A stretch of 10,904 bases of DNA from a virus (taxonomy: Duplodnaviria; Heunggongvirae; Uroviricota; Caudoviricetes): positions 1 through 10,904 of IMG/VR virus record IMGVR_UViG_2660238215_000014; one strand, written 5' to 3'. Position 1 is the stretch's first letter; every line of letters begins with the position of its first letter. The notes under the pieces are model-generated. The model saw only the letters and a program-made list of their open reading frames with translations. It searched no databases and was not told the DNA's origin. Positions 1 to 10,904 of this stretch are shown here, piece after piece. The translations under genes and the position numbers were made by a program.

Positions 1-78
1 CCACCAGTATAAGTTATTGATATATAGAAAAATAAAAATTTTTAGTGTCGAATCTGGTTGTTTTTTGTTCATCACTGG
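1..78. repeat. Copy A of a 78-bp imperfect direct repeat (copy B at 8446-8523; 72/78 identical), located 30-108 bp upstream of the terS start
   Basis: Base-by-base alignment of 1-78 with 8446-8523 gives 6 mismatches (positions 7, 14, 26, 29, 30, 55 of the repeat); longest exact blocks are 24 and 23 bp. Contains the 10-bp palindrome AAAAATTTTT (34-43) and TGTTCAtC (66-73), one mismatch from the origin octamer. The window starts inside or at the edge of this repeat, so its leftward extent is unknown. Confidence 0.85.
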
Positions 79-106
79 TGTGTGTTTACATAATTTTCAG
101 GGGGAG
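65..106 (+). promoter_or_regulatory. Putative sigma70-type promoter and ribosome binding site for terS
   Basis: -35-like TTGTTC (65-70), 18-bp spacer, -10-like CATAAT (89-94), Shine-Dalgarno GGGGGAG (100-106) just before ATG 109. Pattern match only; the -10 lies outside the repeated 78 bp and is not conserved in copy B. Confidence 0.3.
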
Positions 107-108
107 TT

Positions 109-585
109 ATGGATCGTGAATTAAAAAATCTGCATCTGAATATTTCCCAACTGGCCGCATTATCCGGTGCTCATCGACAGACTGTTGCGGCTCGGGTAAA
201 AAACATAAGCCCAGCCGGTGGTCATGAGAGCAATCTCAAACTGTACCGACTGACAGATATCCTTGCCGAGCTGATGAAAGCTCCTCTGCCTGTAGATAAC
301 GAGGAAATGGATCCTCATGCGCGTAAAGCATGGTACCAGTCAGAACGTGACCGACTGAAATTTGAGCAGGAAACTGGTCAGCTTGTGCCAGTCAGTGATG
401 TCAGGCGGTCCTTTTCTGTCGTGGTGAAAGCGATAGTTCAGGTACTGGAAACCTGGCCTGACCGGCTGGAGAGGGACAGGGGGTGGACCGCATCACAACT
501 GAATGAAGTACAGATTGTGGTTGATGAGATCCGCGACACACTGGAAAAGGCAGTCATTGACTGTTGTGATGAGGCCGATATGTGA
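109..585 (+). CDS. terS: Phage terminase small subunit (Nu1-like, N-terminal helix-turn-helix DNA-binding domain)
   Basis: 158-aa ORF with good RBS; N-terminal motif LNISQLAALSGAHRQTVAARV resembles the winged-HTH of small terminases; its stop overlaps the start of the gpA-type large terminase ORF (GTGA at 582-585), the classic terS-terL coupling. Confidence 0.65.
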   Translation: MDRELKNLHLNISQLAALSGAHRQTVAARVKNISPAGGHESNLKLYRLTDILAELMKAPLPVDNEEMDPHARKAWYQSERDRLKFEQETGQLVPVSDVRRSFSVVVKAIVQVLETWPDRLERDRGWTASQLNEVQIVVDEIRDTLEKAVIDCCDEADM

Positions 586-1589
586 ATCAGGTGAACGAGA
601 GCCATAGCCGCGCATCCGATATCTGGCGCGAAGTGGCCTCGCTGTTTCGCCCACCCAGCCGGTTACCAGTAGCGGAAGCCATCAGGCGTTATATGCGGGT
701 TCCACGGGGAGCCAATACTTCCGGTCCGTGGGAGTCATCGCTGACGCCCTATATGATTGACCCCATTAATACATTATCAGCCCGTGAATATGACGCGGTG
801 GTGTTTGTGGGACCTGCGCGAACCGGGAAAACCGAAGGGCTGATTGATGGCTGGATTGTGTACGGCATCATCTGTGATCCGGCGGATATGCTGGTGGTGC
901 AGATGACTGAGACGAAGGCGCGTGAGCATTCCAGAACGCGTCTTTCCAGGACGTTTCGCCACAGTCCGGAGGTCAGCAAGCGCCTCAGTCCTTCCCGTAA
1001 TGACAACAACGTCCACGATAAAATGTTTCTTGACGGCTCCTTCCTGAAGATTGGCTGGCCGTCGATCACCGTCTTTTCCTCTTCGGATTACCGTCGTGTG
1101 GCGCTGACGGATTATGACCGTTTCCCTGAAAACGTGGACGGGGAAGGGGATGCCTTCACGCTGGCCTCAAAGCGTACCACCACCTTTATGTCCTCGGGGA
1201 TGACCCTGGTCGAGAGTTCACCGGGGCGGGATATCACCGATACCAAATGGCGTTGTGGTGGCGCACATGAGGCACCGCCAACAACGGGGATCCTGTCACT
1301 GTATAACCGGGGAGACCGCCGCCGGTGGTACTGGCCGTGTCCGCACTGCGGGGAATATTTTCAGCCGGTGATGGATAACATGACCGGATACCGGAATAAC
1401 CCGGATTTTGTGGCTGCCGGTCAGGCTGCCCGTCTGATGTGTCCGCATTGTCGCGGGCTGATTGCCCCTGAGCAGAAACGCGAACTGAATAACCAGGGGA
1501 TCTGGCTTCGTGAAGGTGAACGGGCGGCGGCGGACGGCAGTATCACCGGAACGCCACGAAACTCCCGGATTGCGTCATTTTGGATGTAG
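582..1589 (+). pseudogene. terL: Large terminase, lambda gpA family, N-terminal fragment only (335 aa versus about 640 aa expected)
   Basis: Walker A GPARTGKT; paired CxxC motifs (CPHCGEYF ... CPHCRGL) as in lambda gpA from memory; gpA-like similarity continues to the last residues (GIWLREG ... ASFWM), then a TAG stop at 1587-1589 coincides with a sharp shift to AT-rich non-coding DNA. No continuation in any frame. Confidence 0.8.
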
Positions 1590-1750
1590 GGTACATTTCT
1601 TACCTGTTTGTATGTTCTGGTGTCGATTCATAGTCTTTTCAATGAGTTGTGATTTTATGAGTTTCCTCTCTTTGCTTGATAATGAGTTAGTTTATCGCTT
1701 GTTATTGGCTTGAATGGACTACATGACGGACTAAAAAATGAGGGCGATAG

Positions 1751-2989
1751 ATGTCGGTAAAGCCATTAACCGTGACTGAAGTTAAGGGGATGAAACCACG
1801 TGAAAAGGACTATGCCGTTTATGATGGGTTCGGTTTATTGCTGAATGTGAGTAAAGCCGGTGGGAAAGTGTGGCGTTTCCGTTATAGCCATCCGATAACG
1901 AAGAAACGGCAGACATACACGATAGGACGTTTTCCTGAATTCTCACTCGCGGAAGCACGGGAAGTACGTGATGAACTTCGGCGAATGATTGCACGTGGAG
2001 TTGATCCAGTGACGGAGAAGAAAAATCGTAAAATTGAGATGTCACTAAAAAATCTACAGACATTTGAAGCTGTTGCTAATGCATGGTTCGCTTTTAAAAA
2101 GGGATCTGAATTGCGGAAACCTACGCTGTATAATATCGAATATGAAGTATACAAATATCTTGTTCCTTTCTTTGGTAAGTACAGTATAGAAAAAATTACA
2201 GCACCAGTAGCTATTAATGCTCTGGATGCCGTATCCGATAAGAATGCGTTGCAAAAAAAATTAATATCAAGATTAAATGAAATTATGAATTATGCTGTAA
2301 ATTGTGGAGCATTGAAAGCAAATCCATTACTTAAGATAAAGACTGCATTCACAGGAAAGAAAAATAAATCATTAGCAGCACTACCTGTTGAAAGATTGCC
2401 TGAATTTCTGAGCTGGTGGGATAGTGTGCCTCATACCTATCAAATAGCTCATAATGCACTTTTATTCCAGATATTGACAATGGTTAGGCCAGGTGAGGCG
2501 ATTAAAGCAGAGTGGTCAGAGATTGATTTTGATTCTGGCTTGTGGATTATCCCCGCGCATAAAATGAAATGCCATCGTGAACATGTTGTTCCCTTGTCAT
2601 CACAGGCTATTAGTATCCTCAGAACAATGCAGGAAATAAAAAGAGGGCGTTATGTGTTTTTTTCCTCCAGAACAAAAGATGCGCCTATGGGGAGGAATAC
2701 TATCAAGACCCCAATTGCTGCCAGCAAGTTCAAAGGGATTGTAACGTTACATGGTTTTCGTTCAATGTGGAGTACGCTTTTAAATGAGGAGGGATTTAAC
2801 CCCGATGTAATCGAGGCTGCATTGGCGCATAAAAGTGGTGATAAAATAAGAGATATTTATAATAGAACTATTTATCTAGAACAGCGTAAGATCATGATGC
2901 AATGGGTCGGTGATTTTTTTGATGATGCGAGAAAAGGGGTAATTAATAGATCCGGTGGTATGAAAGGTTTAAGAGTAGTAAATGGTTGA
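1751..2989 (+). CDS. int: Tyrosine site-specific integrase, P4-like family (N-terminal arm-binding domain plus catalytic domain)
   Basis: 412 aa; N-terminus GLLLNVSKAGGKVWRFRYSHP...GRFPEFSLAEAREVRDEL matches the P4-type integrase arm-binding domain; C-terminal catalytic signature R (MVRPGEA), HGFRSMWST, LAHKSGDKIRDIYNRTIY with terminal Tyr. RBS GAGGG 6 nt upstream. Gene is markedly more AT-rich than its neighbours. Confidence 0.9.
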   Translation: MSVKPLTVTEVKGMKPREKDYAVYDGFGLLLNVSKAGGKVWRFRYSHPITKKRQTYTIGRFPEFSLAEAREVRDELRRMIARGVDPVTEKKNRKIEMSLKNLQTFEAVANAWFAFKKGSELRKPTLYNIEYEVYKYLVPFFGKYSIEKITAPVAINALDAVSDKNALQKKLISRLNEIMNYAVNCGALKANPLLKIKTAFTGKKNKSLAALPVERLPEFLSWWDSVPHTYQIAHNALLFQILTMVRPGEAIKAEWSEIDFDSGLWIIPAHKMKCHREHVVPLSSQAISILRTMQEIKRGRYVFFSSRTKDAPMGRNTIKTPIAASKFKGIVTLHGFRSMWSTLLNEEGFNPDVIEAALAHKSGDKIRDIYNRTIYLEQRKIMMQWVGDFFDDARKGVINRSGGMKGLRVVNG

Positions 2990-3002
2990 GGAGGTTCAGC
3001 AA

Positions 3003-3206
3003 ATGAATACCAATGAAGATATTTTATTTACTAAAGACGTAATGAAAATCTTGCGATATGGAGCAATGAGTGCATTCATCAATTTCTGGAAAGATGAGAA
3101 TAATGGTTTTCCTCAGCCGTTCAGAATTGGACGACGACATACCTGGCACCGTAGAGATGTAGAAGCATGGTTAGATAAACAACGAGAACAGGCCAATCCC
3201 CACTAA
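3003..3206 (+). CDS. alpA: AlpA/Vis-like small HTH transcriptional regulator or excisionase
   Basis: The track ORF starts at 2982, but a strong SD GAGGAGG (2988-2994) sits 8 nt before the in-frame ATG at 3003, giving 67 aa. Motif FPQPFRIGRRHTWHRRDVEAWL fits the AlpA family (FP-P-ilG-r---W---dV--Wl). Immediately downstream of int in the same orientation, as in P4 (vis) and Gram-negative PICIs. Confidence 0.75.
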   Translation: MNTNEDILFTKDVMKILRYGAMSAFINFWKDENNGFPQPFRIGRRHTWHRRDVEAWLDKQREQANPH

Positions 3207-3220
3207 TAATATCTTTCATA

Positions 3221-3245
3221 CCCCGCGTGCAATGCGGGGTTTTTT
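3221..3245 (+). terminator. Rho-independent terminator after int-alpA
   Basis: Stem CCCCGC (3221-3226), loop GTGCAAT, stem GCGGGG (3234-3239), followed by TTTTTT (3240-3245). Confidence 0.7.
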
Positions 3246-3265
3246 GTATGTGAGGTAAAAAAGAA

Positions 3266-3847
3266 ATGAATAAAAATATTGCCGTGACGGGCAAGGGTGA
3301 CGCACGTCATGTAAAAAAATTCTGTGATATTCGTGATCTGGTCGTTCTGCGCTTTGATAGTGTGAACGTTCGCGTGGTGTATCTGAACGGCGATCCGTGG
3401 TTTGTTGCAAAGGATGTTTGTGTTGCTCTGGAAATAAGTAACTCACGCGATGCTCTAAAAGCACTAGATGCGGATGAAAAGAAAACCGTCGCTTTAAGCT
3501 ACGGTATTCGAGGAAATCCAAATCATAGCCTCATTTCTGAATCCGGTTTTTACAAGCTGATCGCCAGAAGTCGGAAAGCTGTTACTCCTGGCACGTTCGC
3601 CCATCGTTTCAGTAACTGGGTATTCAGGAATGTGATACCGGGTATCAGAAAAACGGGGGCTTATGGTATCCCGTGGGGTGTAGTACAGGATTTTTCCCGC
3701 CGCAAAGAGCAATACCAGATAAGTGCCAGCGAGAAGGGGAGGGCGCTACAGGCATGTAAGCGCAAAAAACGTGAACTGGAGGAAGAAGAAAAAAGGCTGA
3801 TACGTGAATATCAGCCTGAGTTTTACTTTGGCAACCGCATTCAGTGA
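3266..3847 (+). CDS. Bro-N domain protein (antirepressor-like N-terminal domain, short coiled-coil-like C-terminus, no obvious KilA-C domain)
   Basis: 193 aa; hallmark Bro-N motifs VRVVYLNGDPWFVAKDVCVALEI ... SGFYKLIARSRKAVTPGTFAHRFSNWVFRNVIPGIRKTGAYG; SD GAGG 10 nt upstream of ATG 3266; C-terminal 50 aa rich in K/R/E. Confidence 0.8.
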   Translation: MNKNIAVTGKGDARHVKKFCDIRDLVVLRFDSVNVRVVYLNGDPWFVAKDVCVALEISNSRDALKALDADEKKTVALSYGIRGNPNHSLISESGFYKLIARSRKAVTPGTFAHRFSNWVFRNVIPGIRKTGAYGIPWGVVQDFSRRKEQYQISASEKGRALQACKRKKRELEEEEKRLIREYQPEFYFGNRIQ

Positions 3848-3879
3848 CAAAACAAAGGCGACCCGGATCAGAGGTCGCC
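3847..3879 (-). terminator. Putative rho-independent terminator for the minus-strand RHH gene
   Basis: Inverted repeat GGCGACC (3857-3863) / GGTCGCC (3873-3879) with 9-nt loop; on the minus strand the hairpin is followed by TTTGTTTTGT (complement of 3847-3856). Confidence 0.5.
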
Positions 3880-3970
3880 AATGGGAAAACACTAAACATA
3901 AGCCCAAACATCATAGCGATTTGTTGGCTGGTGGGCAATGTGATCAGTGTGCTGGCTTGCTGGTGGATTG

Positions 3971-4153
3971 TCAGCCTTTTGGTTCTATGCCTTCTTTGCG
4001 TAGCTTGTCACGACAGGCATTTTTAACCCATGAACTGAAATTACCAGGCCCAGCAACTTCGTTAATTTGTTGCAACAATGTGTCTTCGAAGCGGATGTTT
4101 TTCTTTGTGCTGCCGGAGCGATCAAATTTTGGTTTCTCATTTTTTTCTTGCAT
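3971..4153 (-). CDS. Small ribbon-helix-helix (Arc/CopG-like) DNA-binding protein; candidate repressor of the element
   Basis: 60 aa; segment KKNIRFEDTLLQQINEVAGPGNFSSWVKNACRDKL has the beta-strand / helix / G-x-S / helix pattern of RHH proteins. It is the only convincing minus-strand gene, divergent from the rightward operon, with palindromic operators at its 5' side and a hairpin terminator at its 3' side. Confidence 0.5.
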   Translation of the reverse strand: MQEKNEKPKFDRSGSTKKNIRFEDTLLQQINEVAGPGNFSSWVKNACRDKLRKEGIEPKG

Positions 4154-4198
4154 TGGTACGTACCACCATTATAAACTGAAACCCAATGGTACGTACCA
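4154..4198. promoter_or_regulatory. Two copies of the perfect 12-bp palindrome TGGTACGTACCA (4154-4165 and 4187-4198) bracketing a -10-like TATAAA; putative operator pair in the divergent promoter region
   Basis: Both copies read directly; 33 bp centre to centre (about 3 helical turns). Rightward -35-like TTGCAT (4148-4153) and -10-like TATAAA (4170-4175); on the minus strand a perfect TATAAT lies between the palindromes (complement of 4167-4172). Confidence 0.6.
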
Positions 4199-4298
4199 TG
4201 TTGAAGATACGCAACCATTAAATACAGCGAAGCCCCGCAGTGGTGGAACACTCGCAGGGCTTCTAACCACCAACGATAGCAAGATTATCGAGGTAGCT

Positions 4299-4490
4299 AT
4301 GTTAAATCATACCACACACCCGCAAGGGCGGGACTTGCACAACCTGAATAAATTCACCTGGCGTTTTATCGCCCTGAGCACGGCACAACCGCGCGTGATT
4401 ACCATTGAGGCCACCAGCGAACAGGAAGCACGCCAGCAATCTCCTGATGGCTGCGTGATGGTATTCGCTGCCCGTATTCGTCAGGGGTAA
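4299..4490 (+). CDS. Small hypothetical protein (63 aa), first gene of the rightward operon; function unknown
   Basis: ATG 4299 preceded by GAGG (4289-4292); corresponds to the C-terminal in-frame part of track ORF 3804-4490, whose upstream part looks non-coding. I have a vague, unverifiable recollection of Icd-like annotations on similar small proteins. Confidence 0.45.
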   Translation: MLNHTTHPQGRDLHNLNKFTWRFIALSTAQPRVITIEATSEQEARQQSPDGCVMVFAARIRQG

Positions 4491-4493
4491 GTC

Positions 4494-4859
4494 ATGCATA
4501 ACCTGTCAATTTCTGACCTTAACTGCATTCAGTTTGACGAGAAATTTACCGGGCAGCTACTGGTCCATGTGGAGAACGGGCGCATAGTGCGTAATTACCA
4601 CCTGCCGGATGGTGCAATTGCCGGAAGCGTTGAAGCATTGCTGGAACTGGCAGAACGTGCGCGACTGATTAAGCCGTTAACGAACCATCACGATGATGAT
4701 CTGCATTTTACCGGACGCATGGTGAGTCACTACGAAAACGGCGTCGAGGTATCCCGCGAACGGCTGCGTGATGATTGCTGTTTCGGCACACTGCCGGAAT
4801 TTATCGAGTTGCTGACCAGTTGCGGTTATCAGGTCATTCAGGGGGGTAAACATGCGTGA
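4494..4859 (+). CDS. Hypothetical protein (121 aa) made of two tandem copies of a roughly 50-aa domain (FTG-x-LV-x3-ENG ... L-x-ELL)
   Basis: SD AGGGG 7 nt upstream. Internal duplication visible in the translation: FTGQLLVHVENGRIVRNYHLPDGAIAGSVEALLELAERA versus FTGRMVSHYENGVEVSRERLRDDCCFGTLPEFIELLTSC. Confidence 0.6.
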   Translation: MHNLSISDLNCIQFDEKFTGQLLVHVENGRIVRNYHLPDGAIAGSVEALLELAERARLIKPLTNHHDDDLHFTGRMVSHYENGVEVSRERLRDDCCFGTLPEFIELLTSCGYQVIQGGKHA

Positions 4860-5085
4860 TGATCGTTTTAATTCCCTGAAACGGGAATTTGATGGCGCAC
4901 AGGAAGATGCAGCGGGCGCATTGTTGAGCGTTGCTGACATGATGAAAGCTGCATATTTTCTTATCAATACCAGTGGCTACAAGTCAGAGGGTGAAATGAT
5001 TCTTAGTATTGCGTCGGACTATGCGGAATATGTGGCAGAGACGCGTTACAGAAGAAAATTCACGGAGGATGTAAGCCATGCATAA
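4852..5085 (+). CDS. Hypothetical protein (77 aa)
   Basis: ATG overlaps the end of the previous gene by 8 nt; SD GGGGGG upstream; acidic, helical-looking sequence, no recognisable motif. Confidence 0.5.
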   Translation: MRDDRFNSLKREFDGAQEDAAGALLSVADMMKAAYFLINTSGYKSEGEMILSIASDYAEYVAETRYRRKFTEDVSHA

Positions 5086-5279
5086 TCATGAAGCGCATGT
5101 ACCCGTAGTGCTTAATGTGCCAGATGATTTCACCGGACGCGTACTGGTTTACCTGGATAAAGGGAAAGTGAAATCACAATGCCGACTGAAAAGTAATGAG
5201 ATTGTTGGTTCTCCTGAATTTTTTTTCTGAACTTTGTATTCGTGCGGAAATAAAACCGGAACTGCTGACAGGAAAATAA
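5078..5279 (+). pseudogene. Third copy of the FTG domain (paralog of 4494-4859), interrupted by a frameshift at a T8 homopolymer (5219-5226)
   Basis: ATG 5078 overlaps the previous stop (ATGCATAA). Frame 1 gives MHNHEAHVPVVLNVPDDFTGRVLVYLDKGKVKSQCRLKSNEIVGSPEFFF* (stop 5228-5230); the +1 frame continues SELCIRAEIKPELLTGK* (stop 5277-5279), which aligns with the ELAERARLIKPL part of the paralog. Not in the ORF track because each piece is under 60 aa. Confidence 0.5.
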
Positions 5280-5283
5280 AACC

Positions 5284-5574
5284 ATGAAAAAGAAAAATTC
5301 TGGCTTTACTGCCAGCGGCCTCTCTCGGCCTGAAATCCGCCCCGGTGATATTTTCCGGGACACCAGACGCGGTGGACGGGTGGTTATTCGTCACGTTACG
5401 CCAGGCAATATCACCTACCGCCGTGAGGCTTACGAATATGACTGCGTAATGCCGCGCCGTCAGTTTGATCGTGATTTTATTCTGGTGGAAAACAAACAAC
5501 AGGCAGTGGCGAGACGTGCAGCCACGAATATTAAAAAAATCCGGGCAATGTTGGTTGCGGGAGGTAAGAAGTGA
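5284..5574 (+). CDS. Hypothetical basic protein (96 aa), immediately upstream of and coupled to pri-rep
   Basis: ATG 5284 after AAAACC; stop overlaps the GTG start of the primase gene (GTGA 5571-5574); K/R-rich, no recognisable motif. Confidence 0.5.
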   Translation: MKKKNSGFTASGLSRPEIRPGDIFRDTRRGGRVVIRHVTPGNITYRREAYEYDCVMPRRQFDRDFILVENKQQAVARRAATNIKKIRAMLVAGGKK

Positions 5575-7370
5575 AAAACGCACCGAGTCTAAAATATCAG
5601 CTGAAGGATAAATTCACTGAGGTAATCATTTTTGCCGGGACGGATGCTTACGCCCATGCTCAACACTGGATTGAAAGTGAAGGACGAAAACACGGCGATA
5701 ACGTGCCTCCTGTTTACCTGGGGCCAAAGCAACTGGCAGACCTGGCGAATATCCGCATTATTGACGAGAAACGCCGTTTTGCGCGTGTCTATATCGCGGG
5801 GGAGATAGAGCCAATCCAGATCAATACTATCGCTGAAAAGCTGGCGCTGGCTGGCGTACAGGAGGCGAAATTATACAAAGGTATCACCGACCAGGAACCG
5901 GAGAACTGGCGCGACTACCTGCAACGGATCCGCGAACAGGCTGAGCACGGGGAAGTTTCAGTGATGAAATTAGCTACAAAAAATAGTGGTCTACCCAAGC
6001 CTGCATTAAATCAGATGGGAGCCAGCCAGAGAGGGGAAGTGTTACTTGAACATTATGGAGGAGCACTGGCGATTCATGCTGACTCTGACACTGTTCACCA
6101 TTACAACGGCGTTGTATGGGAGCCAGTACAGGATAAAGAATTACAGCGAGCTATGGCACAGATTTTCATTGATGCGGAGATCAGCTATTCGCAGAACGCC
6201 ATTAAATCGGCGGTAGATACCATGAAGTTAAGTTTGCCTGTAATGGGGAATACAGCCCGTAACCTGATTGGATTCAGTAACGGTGTTTTTGATACCCGGA
6301 CAGGCGATTTTCGGGAGCATAACAAAAACGACTGGTTGTTAATTGCCAGTGAATTACCTTTCAGCCCACCAGCAGAGGGGGAAACGCTGGCAACACATGC
6401 GCCGAATTTCTGGAAGTGGTTACGCCGTTCGGTGGCTGAGAATGACCGCAAGGCGGATCGCGTACTGGCTGCATTATTCATGGTGCTGGCGAACCGGTAC
6501 GACTGGCAGTTATTCATTGAGGTAACAGGTCCAGGGGGAAGTGGTAAAAGCGTGATGGCGGAGATTTGCACCATGCTGGCGGGTAAGGCCAACACGGTAT
6601 CGGCAAGCATGAAGGCGCTGGAAGATGCCAGGGAACGCGCGTTAGTGGTTGGCTTTTCGCTGATTATCATGCCGGATATGACCCGCTACGCTGGTGATGG
6701 GGCAGGGATTAAGGCTATTACAGGCGGTGACAAGGTGGCAATTGACCCGAAACACAAAGCCCCCTACTCAACGCGTATTCCGGCAGTAGTGCTGGCGGTT
6801 AACAATAACGCCATGTCATTCAGTGACCGCAGCGGGGGGATCTCACGTCGTCGGGTGATATTCAATTTTTCGGAAGTTGTACAGGAGAACGAACGCGATC
6901 CAATGCTGGCGGAAAAAATAGAAGGTGAGCTGGCGGTAGTGATTCGCCATCTGCTTACACGGTTTGCTGACCAGGACGAAGCCAGACGCCTGTTATATGA
7001 GCAGCAGAAATCTGAAGAAGCACTGGCGATAAAGCGAGAGGGGGATTCGCTGGTGGACTTCTGCGGCTATCTCATGGCGTCGGTAATGTGTGATGGCCTG
7101 TTAGTGGGTAATGCTGAAATTGTACCATTCAGCCCACGCAGGTATCTCTATCATGCCTATCTGGCTTATATGCGGGCACATGGGTTTGGTAAACCTGTAA
7201 CACTGACTCGCTTCGGTAAAGATATGCCGGGGGCAATGGCGGAATATGGCAGGGAGTATATGAAACGGAAAACGAAGCACGGTTTGCGTTCAAACGTGAC
7301 ACTGATGGAGGAATCAGAAGACTGGATGCCATCATGTGTATCGGTCACTAATGACGATAGCAAAAATTAA
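5571..7370 (+). CDS. Replication initiator primase/helicase (pri-rep; P4 alpha-like / D5-type SF3 helicase with P-loop)
   Basis: 599 aa, GTG start with SD GGAGGT (5560-5565); Walker A GPGGSGKS near residue 310 with downstream hydrophobic strand and acidic motif (LIIMPDMT); N-terminal region resembles a primase/Toprim-like domain; cognate iteron origin lies immediately 3' of the gene. Confidence 0.8.
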   Translation: MKNAPSLKYQLKDKFTEVIIFAGTDAYAHAQHWIESEGRKHGDNVPPVYLGPKQLADLANIRIIDEKRRFARVYIAGEIEPIQINTIAEKLALAGVQEAKLYKGITDQEPENWRDYLQRIREQAEHGEVSVMKLATKNSGLPKPALNQMGASQRGEVLLEHYGGALAIHADSDTVHHYNGVVWEPVQDKELQRAMAQIFIDAEISYSQNAIKSAVDTMKLSLPVMGNTARNLIGFSNGVFDTRTGDFREHNKNDWLLIASELPFSPPAEGETLATHAPNFWKWLRRSVAENDRKADRVLAALFMVLANRYDWQLFIEVTGPGGSGKSVMAEICTMLAGKANTVSASMKALEDARERALVVGFSLIIMPDMTRYAGDGAGIKAITGGDKVAIDPKHKAPYSTRIPAVVLAVNNNAMSFSDRSGGISRRRVIFNFSEVVQENERDPMLAEKIEGELAVVIRHLLTRFADQDEARRLLYEQQKSEEALAIKREGDSLVDFCGYLMASVMCDGLLVGNAEIVPFSPRRYLYHAYLAYMRAHGFGKPVTLTRFGKDMPGAMAEYGREYMKRKTKHGLRSNVTLMEESEDWMPSCVSVTNDDSKN

Positions 7371-7382
7371 ACTTATGGAATA

Positions 7383-7613
7383 ACTGTTCACCACTGTTCA
7401 CCCTGTCATAAATATCTTTTATATCAGTATATTATAGGGTGAACAGTTATTTATTAACTGTTCACCAAACTATTCACTGTTCACCTTTTTGATTGTTTAT
7501 TGAGCTTCAAGGGTGAACAGTGGTGAACAGTTGGTGAATAGTTTTTGTGAAACTGTTCACCAATTAACATTATGAATTAAAAGATAAAATATCAAAAGGT
7601 GAACAGGTGAAGG
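7383..7613. repeat. Replication origin: array of TGTTCACC iterons in both orientations with AT-rich spacers
   Basis: Perfect forward copies at 7385-7392, 7395-7402, 7459-7466, 7478-7485, 7554-7561; perfect inverted copies (GGTGAACA) at 7438-7445, 7512-7519, 7522-7529, 7598-7605; degenerate copies at 7471-7478, 7533-7540, 7606-7613; AT-rich stretches 7403-7437 and 7562-7597. Confidence 0.85.
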
Positions 7614-7657
7614 GTTAAAACGCAAAAATTTTAATTTACTGCTGTGAGATAAAGCCT

Positions 7658-7903
7658 ATGACAGCGAAGCACACAAAAAAATCACAATCGCACGCCCTTG
7701 ATTTGACGGAACACTGGTTAAGGGTGTCGATAAAAATCATCGACCGCAACGCCGGGGAAGGATATGCGAAAGCACATCCCGAACTAATAATCGCATTCAT
7801 GACCACGGCGGCGGCAAACTTTGCCACGCTGACGGAACGGGAGATTGCCGAAGCGGAACAGGTAACAACCATCAACGTTAAAACCGGAGAGGTGGAATCA
7901 TGA
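7658..7903 (+). CDS. Hypothetical protein (81 aa)
   Basis: ORF downstream of the origin; its stop overlaps the SSB-like start (ATGA 7900-7903), suggesting an operon; no recognisable motif. Confidence 0.4.
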   Translation: MTAKHTKKSQSHALDLTEHWLRVSIKIIDRNAGEGYAKAHPELIIAFMTTAAANFATLTEREIAEAEQVTTINVKTGEVES

Positions 7904-8323
7904 CAGCACAGATAGCCGCTTACGGGCGGCTGGTGGACGACCCGCAGGTAAAACAGACCAGCAAGGGCACACCGATGACGCTGGCGCGTATGGCGGTCCC
8001 CCCTTCCGTGCAGCCAGGCAGATGACGGAACGGCGACGATGTGGTTATCCGTCCTGGCATTTGGCAGACAGGCCGAAGCACTGGAAAGGCACCGCAAGGG
8101 TGAACTCCTGAGCGTGGCGGGTAACATGCAGATCAGCCAGTGGACTGGGCAGAACGGAGAAACGCGGCAGGGCTGGCAGGTTATCGCAGACAGTGTAATC
8201 AGTGCGCGAACGGCGCGACTGGGCGGCAAAAAAGGTCAACAAGGCCAGGCTACTGACGCGCTGAACAGGGCAAAACAACAGGCGGGGAATGATGATCCGT
8301 ACGGGGATAACATACCGTTTTAA
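7900..8323 (+). pseudogene. ssb: Single-stranded DNA-binding (SSB)-like gene split by a frameshift at a C6 run (7998-8003)
   Basis: Frame 1 from ATG 7900: MTAQIAAYGRLVDDPQVKQTSKGTPMTLARMAV..., resembling the SSB N-terminus ([27 protein letters not shown]), stop at 8023-8025. Frame 2 open from 7979 through track ORF 8039-8323: ...WLSVLAFGRQAEALERHRKGELLSVAGNMQISQWTGQNGETRQGWQVIADSV ... DNIPF, resembling the SSB OB-fold core and IPF tail. Confidence 0.6.
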
Positions 8324-8339
8324 GCGACGAGTGACAGAA

Positions 8340-8361
8340 GCCGGAGCAATCCGGCTTTTTT
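8340..8361 (+). terminator. Rho-independent terminator after the SSB-like gene
   Basis: Stem GCCGGA (8340-8345), loop GCAA, stem TCCGGC (8350-8355), then TTTTTT (8356-8361). Confidence 0.75.
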
Positions 8362-8445
8362 ACGGGTCCTCCTGGCGGGGTGGGCCTGAACACGGGGCGA
8401 CGGGCGCGGAAAAAGGCGCATTTTTTGATTTTTATGGCACCATCA

Positions 8446-8523
8446 CCACCACTATAAGCTATTGATATATTGAGGAATAAAAATTTTTAGTGTCGAATCA
8501 GGTTGTTTTTTGTTCATCACTGG
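8446..8523. repeat. Copy B of the 78-bp imperfect direct repeat (copy A at 1-78)
   Basis: See copy A. Weaker homology continues about 25 bp further (TTTACA ... CAGG) with an indel. In copy B the -10-like element of copy A is replaced (CAAAAA in place of CATAAT). Confidence 0.85.
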
Positions 8524-8790
8524 AACGTTCCCGAAAACATTTACAAAAAAACAGGCGCAAAAAAAAGCGCCCCCGATTGCTGTTACCGGAGGCGCTTTTA
8601 CACGACAAAGGAGTTTTTATCGCCAGGATGACGAGTCTTAATATTGCTTCAATGGCAAAAATGCGTCAATGGCTTTGCCTCTCTGAGAATAATCAGAAAA
8701 AACATAATCTGATTTTCAGGTAGAAAATGATTTATCTATTGCTTTTATCGATCAATAATGATGCCCGTTAATCAAAACGGAGGCGGATTT

Positions 8791-8985
8791 ATGCCAGAGA
8801 ACAACACCAGAAAGCCGGATAAAAGTGCCACGGTACACATAGACGCCGGAACTATGGAGAAGATCGAACGCTATCAGCAGTTCATCAAAGATAATCACCC
8901 GGGTATGCCGGTACCCACGAAAGGACAAATCACACGCAGCGCGGTTGAATACTGGTACCAGGCAACGTTAGGAGCCTGGCTATGA
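8791..8985 (+). CDS. Small hypothetical protein (65 aa from ATG 8791; track start 8758), possibly RHH-like, translationally coupled to the protease-capsid gene
   Basis: Strong SD GGAGG (8779-8783) 7 nt before ATG 8791; stop overlaps the capsid ORF start (ATGA 8982-8985); pattern ATVHIDAGTMEKIERYQQFIK ... TKGQITRSAVEYWYQA is compatible with a beta-strand / helix / helix fold. Confidence 0.45.
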   Translation: MPENNTRKPDKSATVHIDAGTMEKIERYQQFIKDNHPGMPVPTKGQITRSAVEYWYQATLGAWL

Positions 8986-10871
8986 AAACATGGTTTTCCA
9001 TTAAGGCTATGGCAGATGTTGTCTATGTGCGTATTTATGACGAGATCGGCGGGTACGGTGTAAAAGCATCGACACTTACTGACGAGATCAACGCGTGCGG
9101 TAATGCGTCTGAAATCCATCTTCGCATCCATTCACCTGGTGGCGACATCTTTGAAGGGCTGGCTATCTATAACGCCCTGAAAAATCATCCGGCAAAGAAA
9201 ATTGTACACATTGAAGGCATGGCGGCTTCTATGGCCTCGTTTATTGCCATGTGTGGCGATCACATCGTTATGCCTGAAAACGCGATGATGATGATACATG
9301 CCCCCCGTGGTGTTACTGCCGGAGTGTCGGGCGACGTTCGCCGCTTTGCTGACCTGATGGACAAGCTGGGCGACACGATGGCGGAAACCTACGCCGGAAG
9401 AACGGGCAGGAGCAAACAGGAGATCACCTCAATGATGGAGGCGGAAACCTGGATGGATGGCAATGAGTGTAAGGCTAACGGCTTCGCAGATGAGGTTATA
9501 CCCGCGATTACAGCAATGGCCCGAATTGAATCAAAACGAATCGGAGATTTTTCAAATATGCCGGAAAAAATTAAAAGCATGATCAGCCAGAAAACTGGCA
9601 GTGGCGAACAGGAACGACTTAACGGAATCCGTGAATTGTTTGGCACCTTCAACGGAAGATATAACGACCTGGCTATAAGTTGTCTTGCGGATTCAGAATG
9701 TAGCGTTGAGAATGCACGCGAACGCCTTTTACTCGCTATGGGTAAAGAATCAACGCCAACAAACAAAACCACCCCCGCAAATCTTTACTACGCGTACACG
9801 GATAACGGCAATATAACCGGCGATGCCATGCGTCAGGGGCTTAATGCGCGTCTTGGTCACGAACGGGCCGAACGCGGTAATCCTTACGCCATGATGAGCC
9901 TTTTCGATATGGCACAGGCATCATTAACCCATCGTGGTATAAGCACGGGCAGCTACAGCACACGCTCGCAGATAGTAAACGCGGCATTCACCCACAGCAG
10001 CAGCGATTTTACCGATATCCTTGCTGGTGGCGCTGAAAAATCAGTGCTTGCAGGCTGGGAGCACAGCGGCGAAACATTCCGCCAGTGGACGAAAAAAGGT
10101 TCCCTTTCAAACTTCCGGGAAGCCCGCCGCGTTGGTATGAATGGCTTCTCAACGTTAAACAAAGTGCCGGAAGGGGCAGAATATAAATACATCACCACCA
10201 GCGATCGCGGTGAACCCATCGCGCTGGCTACTTACGGGAATATTTTCAGTATTACCCGCCAGGCGATAATCAATGATGACCTTGATCAGTTATCAACGGT
10301 GCCAATGGCTATGGGCCGTGCAGCATCAAGAACGGTGGGAAATCTGGTTAATCTGGTGCTTACAGGCAACGTAAAACTTTCTGACGGAATAACGCTGTTT
10401 GACAAAAAACACAGCAACCTGATTGAAACAGGACTGACAACACCGGGACTTAGTGCAGCACGTCACCTGATGCGCACACAGAAGGACAAAAATGGCGAAG
10501 TGCTGAATATTGCGCCTAAATTCCTTTTAGTTCCGGCAGCACTGGAAGATCGCGCGTTGCAGATGATTAACTCAACCGCACCTTTCGGGGCTGATAAAAA
10601 CAGCGGGATCTTTAACCCGTATCACAAGCTACTTGATATCATCGTCGATCCCCGCCTTGATGATATCAGCGAAAAACAATGGTACATGCTTTCCGCACAG
10701 GGAACGGACACAATCGAGGTGGCTTATCTTGATGGCAATGACGAGCCTTACCTTGAACAGCAGGAAGGTTTTATCGTTGACGGCGTGGCCTGGAAAGTCC
10801 GTATTGATGCAGGTGTGGCAGCTCTGGATTATCGCGGTATGGTCAAATCAGGCGGGACAGATTCACTATGA
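8982..10871 (+). CDS. Prohead serine protease (ClpP/S14-like) fused to an HK97-fold major capsid protein
   Basis: 629 aa; N-terminal region has ClpP-like signatures (HSPGGDIFEGLAIYNAL, catalytic Ser context GMAASMASF, His context MMMIHAP); the C-terminal 350 aa or so resemble phage major capsid proteins; followed directly by a strong terminator, typical of a highly expressed capsid gene. Confidence 0.8.
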   Translation: MKTWFSIKAMADVVYVRIYDEIGGYGVKASTLTDEINACGNASEIHLRIHSPGGDIFEGLAIYNALKNHPAKKIVHIEGMAASMASFIAMCGDHIVMPENAMMMIHAPRGVTAGVSGDVRRFADLMDKLGDTMAETYAGRTGRSKQEITSMMEAETWMDGNECKANGFADEVIPAITAMARIESKRIGDFSNMPEKIKSMISQKTGSGEQERLNGIRELFGTFNGRYNDLAISCLADSECSVENARERLLLAMGKESTPTNKTTPANLYYAYTDNGNITGDAMRQGLNARLGHERAERGNPYAMMSLFDMAQASLTHRGISTGSYSTRSQIVNAAFTHSSSDFTDILAGGAEKSVLAGWEHSGETFRQWTKKGSLSNFREARRVGMNGFSTLNKVPEGAEYKYITTSDRGEPIALATYGNIFSITRQAIINDDLDQLSTVPMAMGRAASRTVGNLVNLVLTGNVKLSDGITLFDKKHSNLIETGLTTPGLSAARHLMRTQKDKNGEVLNIAPKFLLVPAALEDRALQMINSTAPFGADKNSGIFNPYHKLLDIIVDPRLDDISEKQWYMLSAQGTDTIEVAYLDGNDEPYLEQQEGFIVDGVAWKVRIDAGVAALDYRGMVKSGGTDSL

Positions 10872-10877
10872 CAACAA

Positions 10878-10899
10878 GGCGGCACCAGCCGCCTTTTTT
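10878..10899 (+). terminator. Rho-independent terminator after the capsid gene
   Basis: Stem GGCGGC (10878-10883), loop ACCA, stem GCCGCC (10888-10893), then TTTTTT (10894-10899). Confidence 0.75.
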
Positions 10900-10904
10900 G
10901 CGGG

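Follow-up and report, generated by a model that had tools for sequence, protein, structure and literature searches.

A probable replication origin of P4-type iterons behind the initiator gene of a phage-inducible chromosomal island

The 10,904-bp stretch of DNA considered here, positions 1 to 10,904 of IMG/VR virus record IMGVR_UViG_2660238215_000014 (the window), carries much of an Escherichia coli phage-inducible chromosomal island (PICI) whose gene order is that of EcCICFT073, the prototype Gram-negative PICI. Behind a gene for a 599-aa protein lies an array of the octamer TGTTCACC, and with a probability of roughly 0.85 the sequence at 7382-7613 is the replication origin of this EcCICFT073-type island, the upstream gene encoding its initiator, a protein of the type of the alpha protein of satellite P4 that combines a superfamily 3 (SF3) helicase with a C-terminal winged helix. 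As judged by alignment to the P4 ori core and to the units of P4 crr, the array is an ori-type module joined contiguously to a crr-type module.

The octamer is present as ten perfect copies in the window, where 0.41 are expected from dinucleotide-preserving shuffles; none of 200 shuffles reached ten, and the maximum was four. Nine of the ten fall in 7385-7605, which agrees with an earlier reading of the sequence alone (the original prediction) that at least nine perfect copies, in both orientations, stand directly 3′ of the gene. With three degenerate copies included there are 12 sites in 7385-7613. The first array iteron begins 15 bp past the stop codon of the initiator open reading frame (ORF), and the array occupies the 287-bp gap between that stop and the next ORF, at 7658. 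Tandem iterons are spaced 10-11 bp, and convergent iterons are 43-44 bp apart start-to-start across long AT-rich spacers. The original prediction had described two AT-rich segments, and both are borne out, with a GC content of 20% (7403-7437) and 11% (7562-7597) against 48% for the whole window; the least stable 30-mer of the window is at 7408-7437 and the fourth least stable at 7563-7592, and both are candidates for unwinding. A third spacer at 7486-7511 (26 bp, 27% GC) had gone unmentioned. DnaA boxes (up to one mismatch), consensus sites for integration host factor and GATC sites are all absent from 7300-7700. One further perfect copy lies within the gene, at 6092; it was considered as an internal site, by analogy with an internal second origin of P4, and was rejected as a chance occurrence: it is a single copy where 0.41 is expected, and it is missing at the corresponding place in the closest relative, the full island of E. 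coli O111:H8 strain 8E (locus L003).

That the octamer is the type I iteron of P4, as the original prediction had it, is borne out by the P4 record (NC_001609), with 16 annotated ‘ori type 1 repeat’ sites, in ori and crr, of consensus TGTTCACC. P4 has 11 perfect copies, all of them within ori (9310-9413) or crr (4291-4590). P4 crr is directly 3′ of the alpha gene, and the window array holds that same position. The comparison with P4 ori and crr that had been proposed as a check yields, beyond the shared octamer, an in-register alignment for each of the two modules. Between window 7371-7500 and the reverse complement of the P4 ori core the alignment has almost no gaps, every iteron is in register, and a conserved motif, ..AACAGTA.GTTAA.G, is shared in the spacer; invariant columns make up 32 of 47 positions in iterons and 10 of 83 elsewhere (p=1e-10). 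Each of the 120-bp units of P4 crr can likewise be aligned with window 7496-7625, invariant columns being 26 of 48 in iterons versus 11 of 82 elsewhere (p=1.6e-6). The description of the array as P4-like iterons thus stands as far as the iterons go, but falls short in that more than iterons is shared: an ori-type module is fused to a crr-type module. Tandem spacing of 10-11 bp and a 43-44 bp start-to-start distance across a spacer of ~35 bp of AT-rich DNA are also as in P4. The layout is different. In P4 ori and crr are ~4.7 kb apart and crr consists of two 120-bp repeats, whereas the window has one module of each kind, side by side, and, again unlike P4, no terminator between the gene and the repeats.

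The protein encoded upstream fits such an array. Pfam assigns to it D5_N, DUF5906 (SF3 helicase) and Pox_D5 domains, and its residues 146-589 are 51% identical to residues 327-771 of P4 alpha, the helicase and origin-binding part. P4 alpha is a 3′-5′ helicase. In the alignment of the two proteins conservation extends to the regions of Walker A, Walker B, motif C and the arginine finger, with GPGGSGKS (Walker A), LIIMPD, AVNNN and SRRRV retained. Residues 491-587 match the origin-binding domain of P4 alpha in its crystal structure, PDB 1KA8, with E=1.8e-24, so that the proposal of an alpha-like initiator with C-terminal DNA binding is well founded. Repeated TGTTCACC in both orientations and an initiator with an alpha-type winged-helix origin-binding domain, two marks of an alpha-type origin, are thus found in the window; a third, a primase domain (EGYATA/Toprim) of the initiator's own, is not. 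The N-terminal 145 aa are unrelated in comparison to the primase part of P4 alpha (residues 1-326) and match no Pfam or NCBIfam family, nor any primase family. Their fold bears a weak likeness to Toprim, but the acidic residues needed for catalysis are missing from the alignment of the module, the positions of the catalytic Glu and DxD of Toprim enzymes reading IIFAG and YIAGE. The protein is shorter than alpha because the 326-aa primase domain of the latter is replaced by this unrelated module. Of the label ‘primase/helicase’ given in the original prediction, the helicase half is supported by SF3 domains and motifs; the primase half is unsupported, since the replacing module has no primase motifs that could be recognized in its sequence. 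Database searches show the module, with its motif IIFAGxDAyaHA...W...D..PP, joined to helicase cores of three kinds, alpha-type SF3, PF13481 AAA_25 and DUF927-type, and by this distribution it is a portable module.

The strongest functional parallel comes from EcCICFT073 itself. According to the text of Fillol-Salom et al. (2018, ISME J, PMC6092414), a pri-rep-ori segment of that island maintained a temperature-sensitive plasmid, maintenance being lost on deletion of either pri or ori, and the construct replicated in plain DH5alpha. The same text places the ori of Gram-negative PICIs directly 3′ of the gene for the initiator and has AT-rich DNA flanked there by sets of iterons, and all of this is found in the window: the position of the array, iterons flanking AT-rich DNA and an initiator homologous to the validated Pri-Rep. 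Identity to EcCICFT073 Pri-Rep is 44% over the full length (591 aligned positions, E=3e-178), the N-terminal module included. The two islands have in common the gene order int, alpA-like, Icd-like, DUF4222, pri-rep, ori, small ORF, SSB gene (for a protein that binds single-stranded DNA) and capsid gene, and in both the array is right behind pri-rep, with iterons around AT-rich DNA and with equal order and orientation of the repeats. Because of this synteny, the identity of the Pri-Rep proteins and the shared repeat architecture, the window array is considered the homologue of an experimentally validated origin. The earlier designation of the region as an origin is accordingly upheld by sequence comparison, both position and architecture matching those of the region 3′ of EcCICFT073 pri-rep. 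There are also differences. The EcCICFT073 octamer is TGTCTACC, not TGTTCACC, and the C-terminal wings of the two proteins differ to match; the window island carries a gene for a protease-capsid fusion; and it resides in a prophage terminase gene instead of a chromosomal site. To judge from the text of PMC6092414, the resemblance to SaPI-type PICI origins of Gram-positive cocci would be one of layout only.

Conservation among relatives extends the picture. A sample of 79 loci from other species, each encoding a relative of the helicase/DNA-binding part, has 6.27 copies of TGTTCACC per kb within 450 bp 3′ of the gene as against 0.063 per kb elsewhere, an enrichment of ~100-fold behind alpha-like genes. 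The species include Klebsiella, Citrobacter, Raoultella, Pectobacterium, Serratia, Xenorhabdus, Photorhabdus and Zobellella. Iteron order and spacing are equal downstream of short (~590-620 aa) and long, P4-like (~800-850 aa) genes. A few loci have a different octamer in the same place (Table 1; locus L165 is also among them), and in all of those whose wing was examined, except L075, the change of octamer is accompanied by an altered beta-hairpin ‘wing’ of the C-terminal domain; in the TGTCTACC class the wing has a 5-residue insertion. The wing of L075 resembles that of L073, a TGTTCACC locus, despite the octamer CTATACAC. The covariation is an indirect sign that the C-terminal domain reads the octamer, and from these sequences the alternative classes look like a natural specificity code.

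Several considerations weigh against assigning origin function to the array. The window stops ~0.9 kb short of the right end of the island, and the claim of a single cluster rests on strain 8E and on the complete 16.5-kb vB_KppS-Ant (L002). P4 requires ori as well as crr in cis, and alpha mediates looping between the two. Pantoea/Erwinia relatives with long alpha-like genes (L077-L083) lack any obvious octamer repeat within 450 bp downstream of the gene, so the position of the array 3′ of the gene is not universal; their origin may be elsewhere. For the window sequence itself, binding, melting at the spacers, helicase loading, the start of replication and host priming are steps that we infer. 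Finally, the island as found in the window may be undergoing decay: its SSB gene is frameshifted, and its last iteron is degenerate in comparison with relatives.

The shortfall at the right end and the example of P4 bear on the idea that the array is only a crr-like cis enhancer or copy-control (‘handcuffing’) site, with the true start in a second iteron cluster elsewhere. The array does sit where P4 has its crr, directly 3′ of an alpha-like gene, its second half aligns with crr units, and the last ~0.9 kb of the island lies beyond the window. Its first half, however, is homologous to the P4 ori core, and a second, P4-like split cluster was sought in both vB_KppS-Ant and the full strain 8E island and found in neither; past the point corresponding to the end of the window, strain 8E has one lone octamer, in the flanking terminase gene. 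The bipartite layout of P4, with ori and crr kilobases apart, is therefore not what these complete relatives have, each showing a single cluster; in the window the two modules are adjacent. The EcCICFT073 segment 3′ of pri-rep, moreover, sufficed together with pri-rep in the experiments that the text of PMC6092414 describes. An array acting solely as a crr is on these grounds unlikely.

Decay raises another alternative, that the array is a non-functional relic. The SSB frameshift, the degenerate last iteron and the location of the island within a disrupted prophage gene would suit it. Against it are the intact 599-aa ORF with all helicase motifs, the nine perfect iterons and the fact that all of 80 near-identical IMG/VR loci keep 6-10 perfect copies 3′ of the gene, which indicates purifying selection. 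A relic is on these counts very unlikely.

For the array as a replication origin, the following course of events can be proposed. The winged-helix domains of the initiator would bind the twelve TGTTCACC-type sites; with one helical turn between tandem sites and 43-44 bp between convergent ones, helicase subunits would come to flank easily melted AT-rich DNA; hexamers would load at the AT-rich spacers and then unwind. Since the initiator has no recognizable primase domain, priming is probably by the host, DnaG being a likely candidate. This fits the replication of the EcCICFT073 construct in DH5alpha, though it is not proven by it.

Promoter-like (sigma-70-like) and terminator-like sites are both lacking in 7250-7750, and transcription from upstream probably crosses the origin. 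That observation also lends something to the notion that the repeats act chiefly on transcription, as an operator or roadblock by which the initiator would regulate read-through into the SSB and capsid genes, and are not an origin. Gram-negative PICIs are transcribed unidirectionally, as described in the text of PMC6092414, and such transcription must traverse the array, where protein at twelve sites would plausibly influence it. Yet no operator is needed to account for the array, given its homology to P4 ori/crr and to the EcCICFT073 ori that has been validated, convergent sites around AT-rich spacers are typical origin architecture, and a regulatory side-effect of initiator binding, which is possible, would be compatible with origin function instead of an alternative to it. 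That the array serves as an operator and not as an origin is thus very unlikely.

Table 1. Positions of the features of the island and its putative origin (window coordinates), with the alternative octamers of relatives
Feature	Position	Strand	Remarks
Pri-Rep / alpha-like initiator gene	5571..7370	+	599 aa, GTG start; ORF list, Pfam, alignments
N-terminal 145-aa module in place of alpha primase domain	5571..6005	+	possibly degenerate Toprim-like fold
D5_N + SF3 helicase core, aa 146-490	6006..7040	+	
C-terminal winged-helix origin-binding domain (predicted), aa 491-587	7041..7331	+	1KA8 match; wing covaries with iteron class
ori-type module	7382..7485	+	aligns with reverse complement of P4 ori core; order: tandem 7385, 7395 (+); 35-bp spacer; inverted 7438 (-); direct 7459 (+), degenerate 7471 (+), 7478 (+)
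crr-type module	7512..7613	+	aligns with both 120-bp P4 crr repeat units and relatives; order: inverted 7512, 7522, degenerate 7533 (-); direct 7554 (+); 36-bp spacer; inverted 7598, degenerate 7606 (-)
Perfect TGTTCACC	7385, 7395, 7459, 7478, 7554	+	
Perfect TGTTCACC	7438, 7512, 7522, 7598	-	
Degenerate iteron TATTCACt	7471-7478	+	in register with perfect copies of relatives
Degenerate iteron TATTCACC	7533-7540	-	in register with perfect copies of relatives
Degenerate iteron CCTTCACC	7606-7613	-	in register with perfect copies of relatives
AT-rich spacer 1, candidate unwinding element	7403..7437		35 bp, 20% GC; contains least stable 30-mer; composition profile agrees
AT-rich spacer 2	7562..7597		36 bp, 11% GC; motif TTAACAyTATGAAwTAAAAG common to P4 crr
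attL core TTGGATGTAGGG	1580..1591	+	inside prophage terminase large-subunit gene; one mismatch in window copy
Copy of region just upstream of prophage terminase genes	8446..8523	+	~92% identical to window 1-78
Alternative octamer TGTCTACC	3′ of gene		L012, L014, L015, L020
Alternative octamer TCTCCACC	3′ of gene		L018
Alternative octamer CTGTCCGC	3′ of gene		L019
Alternative octamer CTATACAC	3′ of gene		L075

The surroundings of the origin are those of an island within a prophage. The window begins with a lambdoid prophage packaging region, with a DUF1441 small terminase gene and the first 335 codons of gpA. There follow genes for an integrase, an AlpA-type regulator, BRO-N, repressor-like and Icd-like proteins and DUF4222, and then the initiator gene and the array; downstream of the array are a small ORF, the SSB gene and a gene for a fusion of a ClpP-type protease and major capsid protein. 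Pfam, PHROG and the strain 8E annotation reveal an integrase, an alpA-type regulator and genes that all run in one direction, with none for tail or lysis; a probable copy of the helper cos region is carried as well, and by synteny with EcCICFT073 the element is, on sequence grounds, a classical Gram-negative PICI of ~10.2 kb. Two other classifications were rejected: a P4-like satellite, as sid, psu and delta genes are absent from the element, and a capsid-forming PICI (cf-PICI), as the element has no portal or terminase genes and is syntenic with EcCICFT073.

In strain 8E a 12-bp direct repeat flanks the island inside gpA, at 15580 and 25829, and the remaining gpA follows the island. The insertion in gpA (window 582-1591 onward; strain 8E 15580-25840) thus has the core TTGGATG(G/T)AGGG duplicated at both ends, and the gpA reading frame (...SFWMEG|PAAAFQTWEQ...) would be restored by precise excision. 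About 46 complete E. coli genomes contain most of the window. No paper on a satellite residing in the terminase gene of its helper turned up in a phrase search.

The island stretch at 8446-8523 is probably, to judge by its likeness to the start of the window, a copy of the helper cos/terminase-binding region; helper cos-region copies have been reported for cos-type E. coli PICIs. The SSB gene (7900-8323) has a +1 frameshift near 7998, in a locally divergent stretch (~7998-8055), relative to an intact 140-aa copy in strain 8E, and from its sequence it is either a pseudogene or the product of a sequencing error. The protease/capsid fusion, a ClpP-type prohead protease joined to a major capsid protein, is encoded at window 8982-10871; the prophage that hosts the island has a gene of this kind too (strain 8E 28655-30633), which in strain 8E is frameshifted.

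A PICI origin 3′ of pri-rep is a kind already published, as the text of PMC6092414 makes clear. What may be new is a P4-type specificity class in a PICI, and the recognition that the array equals a module of P4 ori together with one of P4 crr. A literature search found no paper linking TGTTCACC to iterons, though the PICI iteron sequences in the figures of PMC6092414 were beyond its reach, and a search on TGTTCACC alone returned primer sequences only.

Short alpha genes of the PICI type and long ones of the P4 type, such as those of Xenorhabdus and Zobellella, alike have the contiguous array on their 3′ side. It is conceivable, as a tentative proposal that may well prove wrong, that contiguous ori and crr modules are the usual state of alpha-type replicons and the P4 split derived, and that the PICI branch swapped the primase for a portable, catalytically dead Toprim-like module. 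If that swap is true, an SF3 helicase initiator must recruit host priming by a route that has not been described. The annotation ‘DNA primase family protein’ stands in hundreds of E. coli genomes even though the primase part is missing, and the origin itself is unannotated.

It is usual to assign P4-like satellites and the PICIs of E. coli to different families, and here one replicon type, with its octamer, binding domain and repeat geometry, is common to both. As wing and octamer change together, the specificity classes could predict incompatibility or cross-activation between co-resident satellites, and an arrangement with ori and crr contiguous is a simpler system in which to ask why two cis sites are required in P4.

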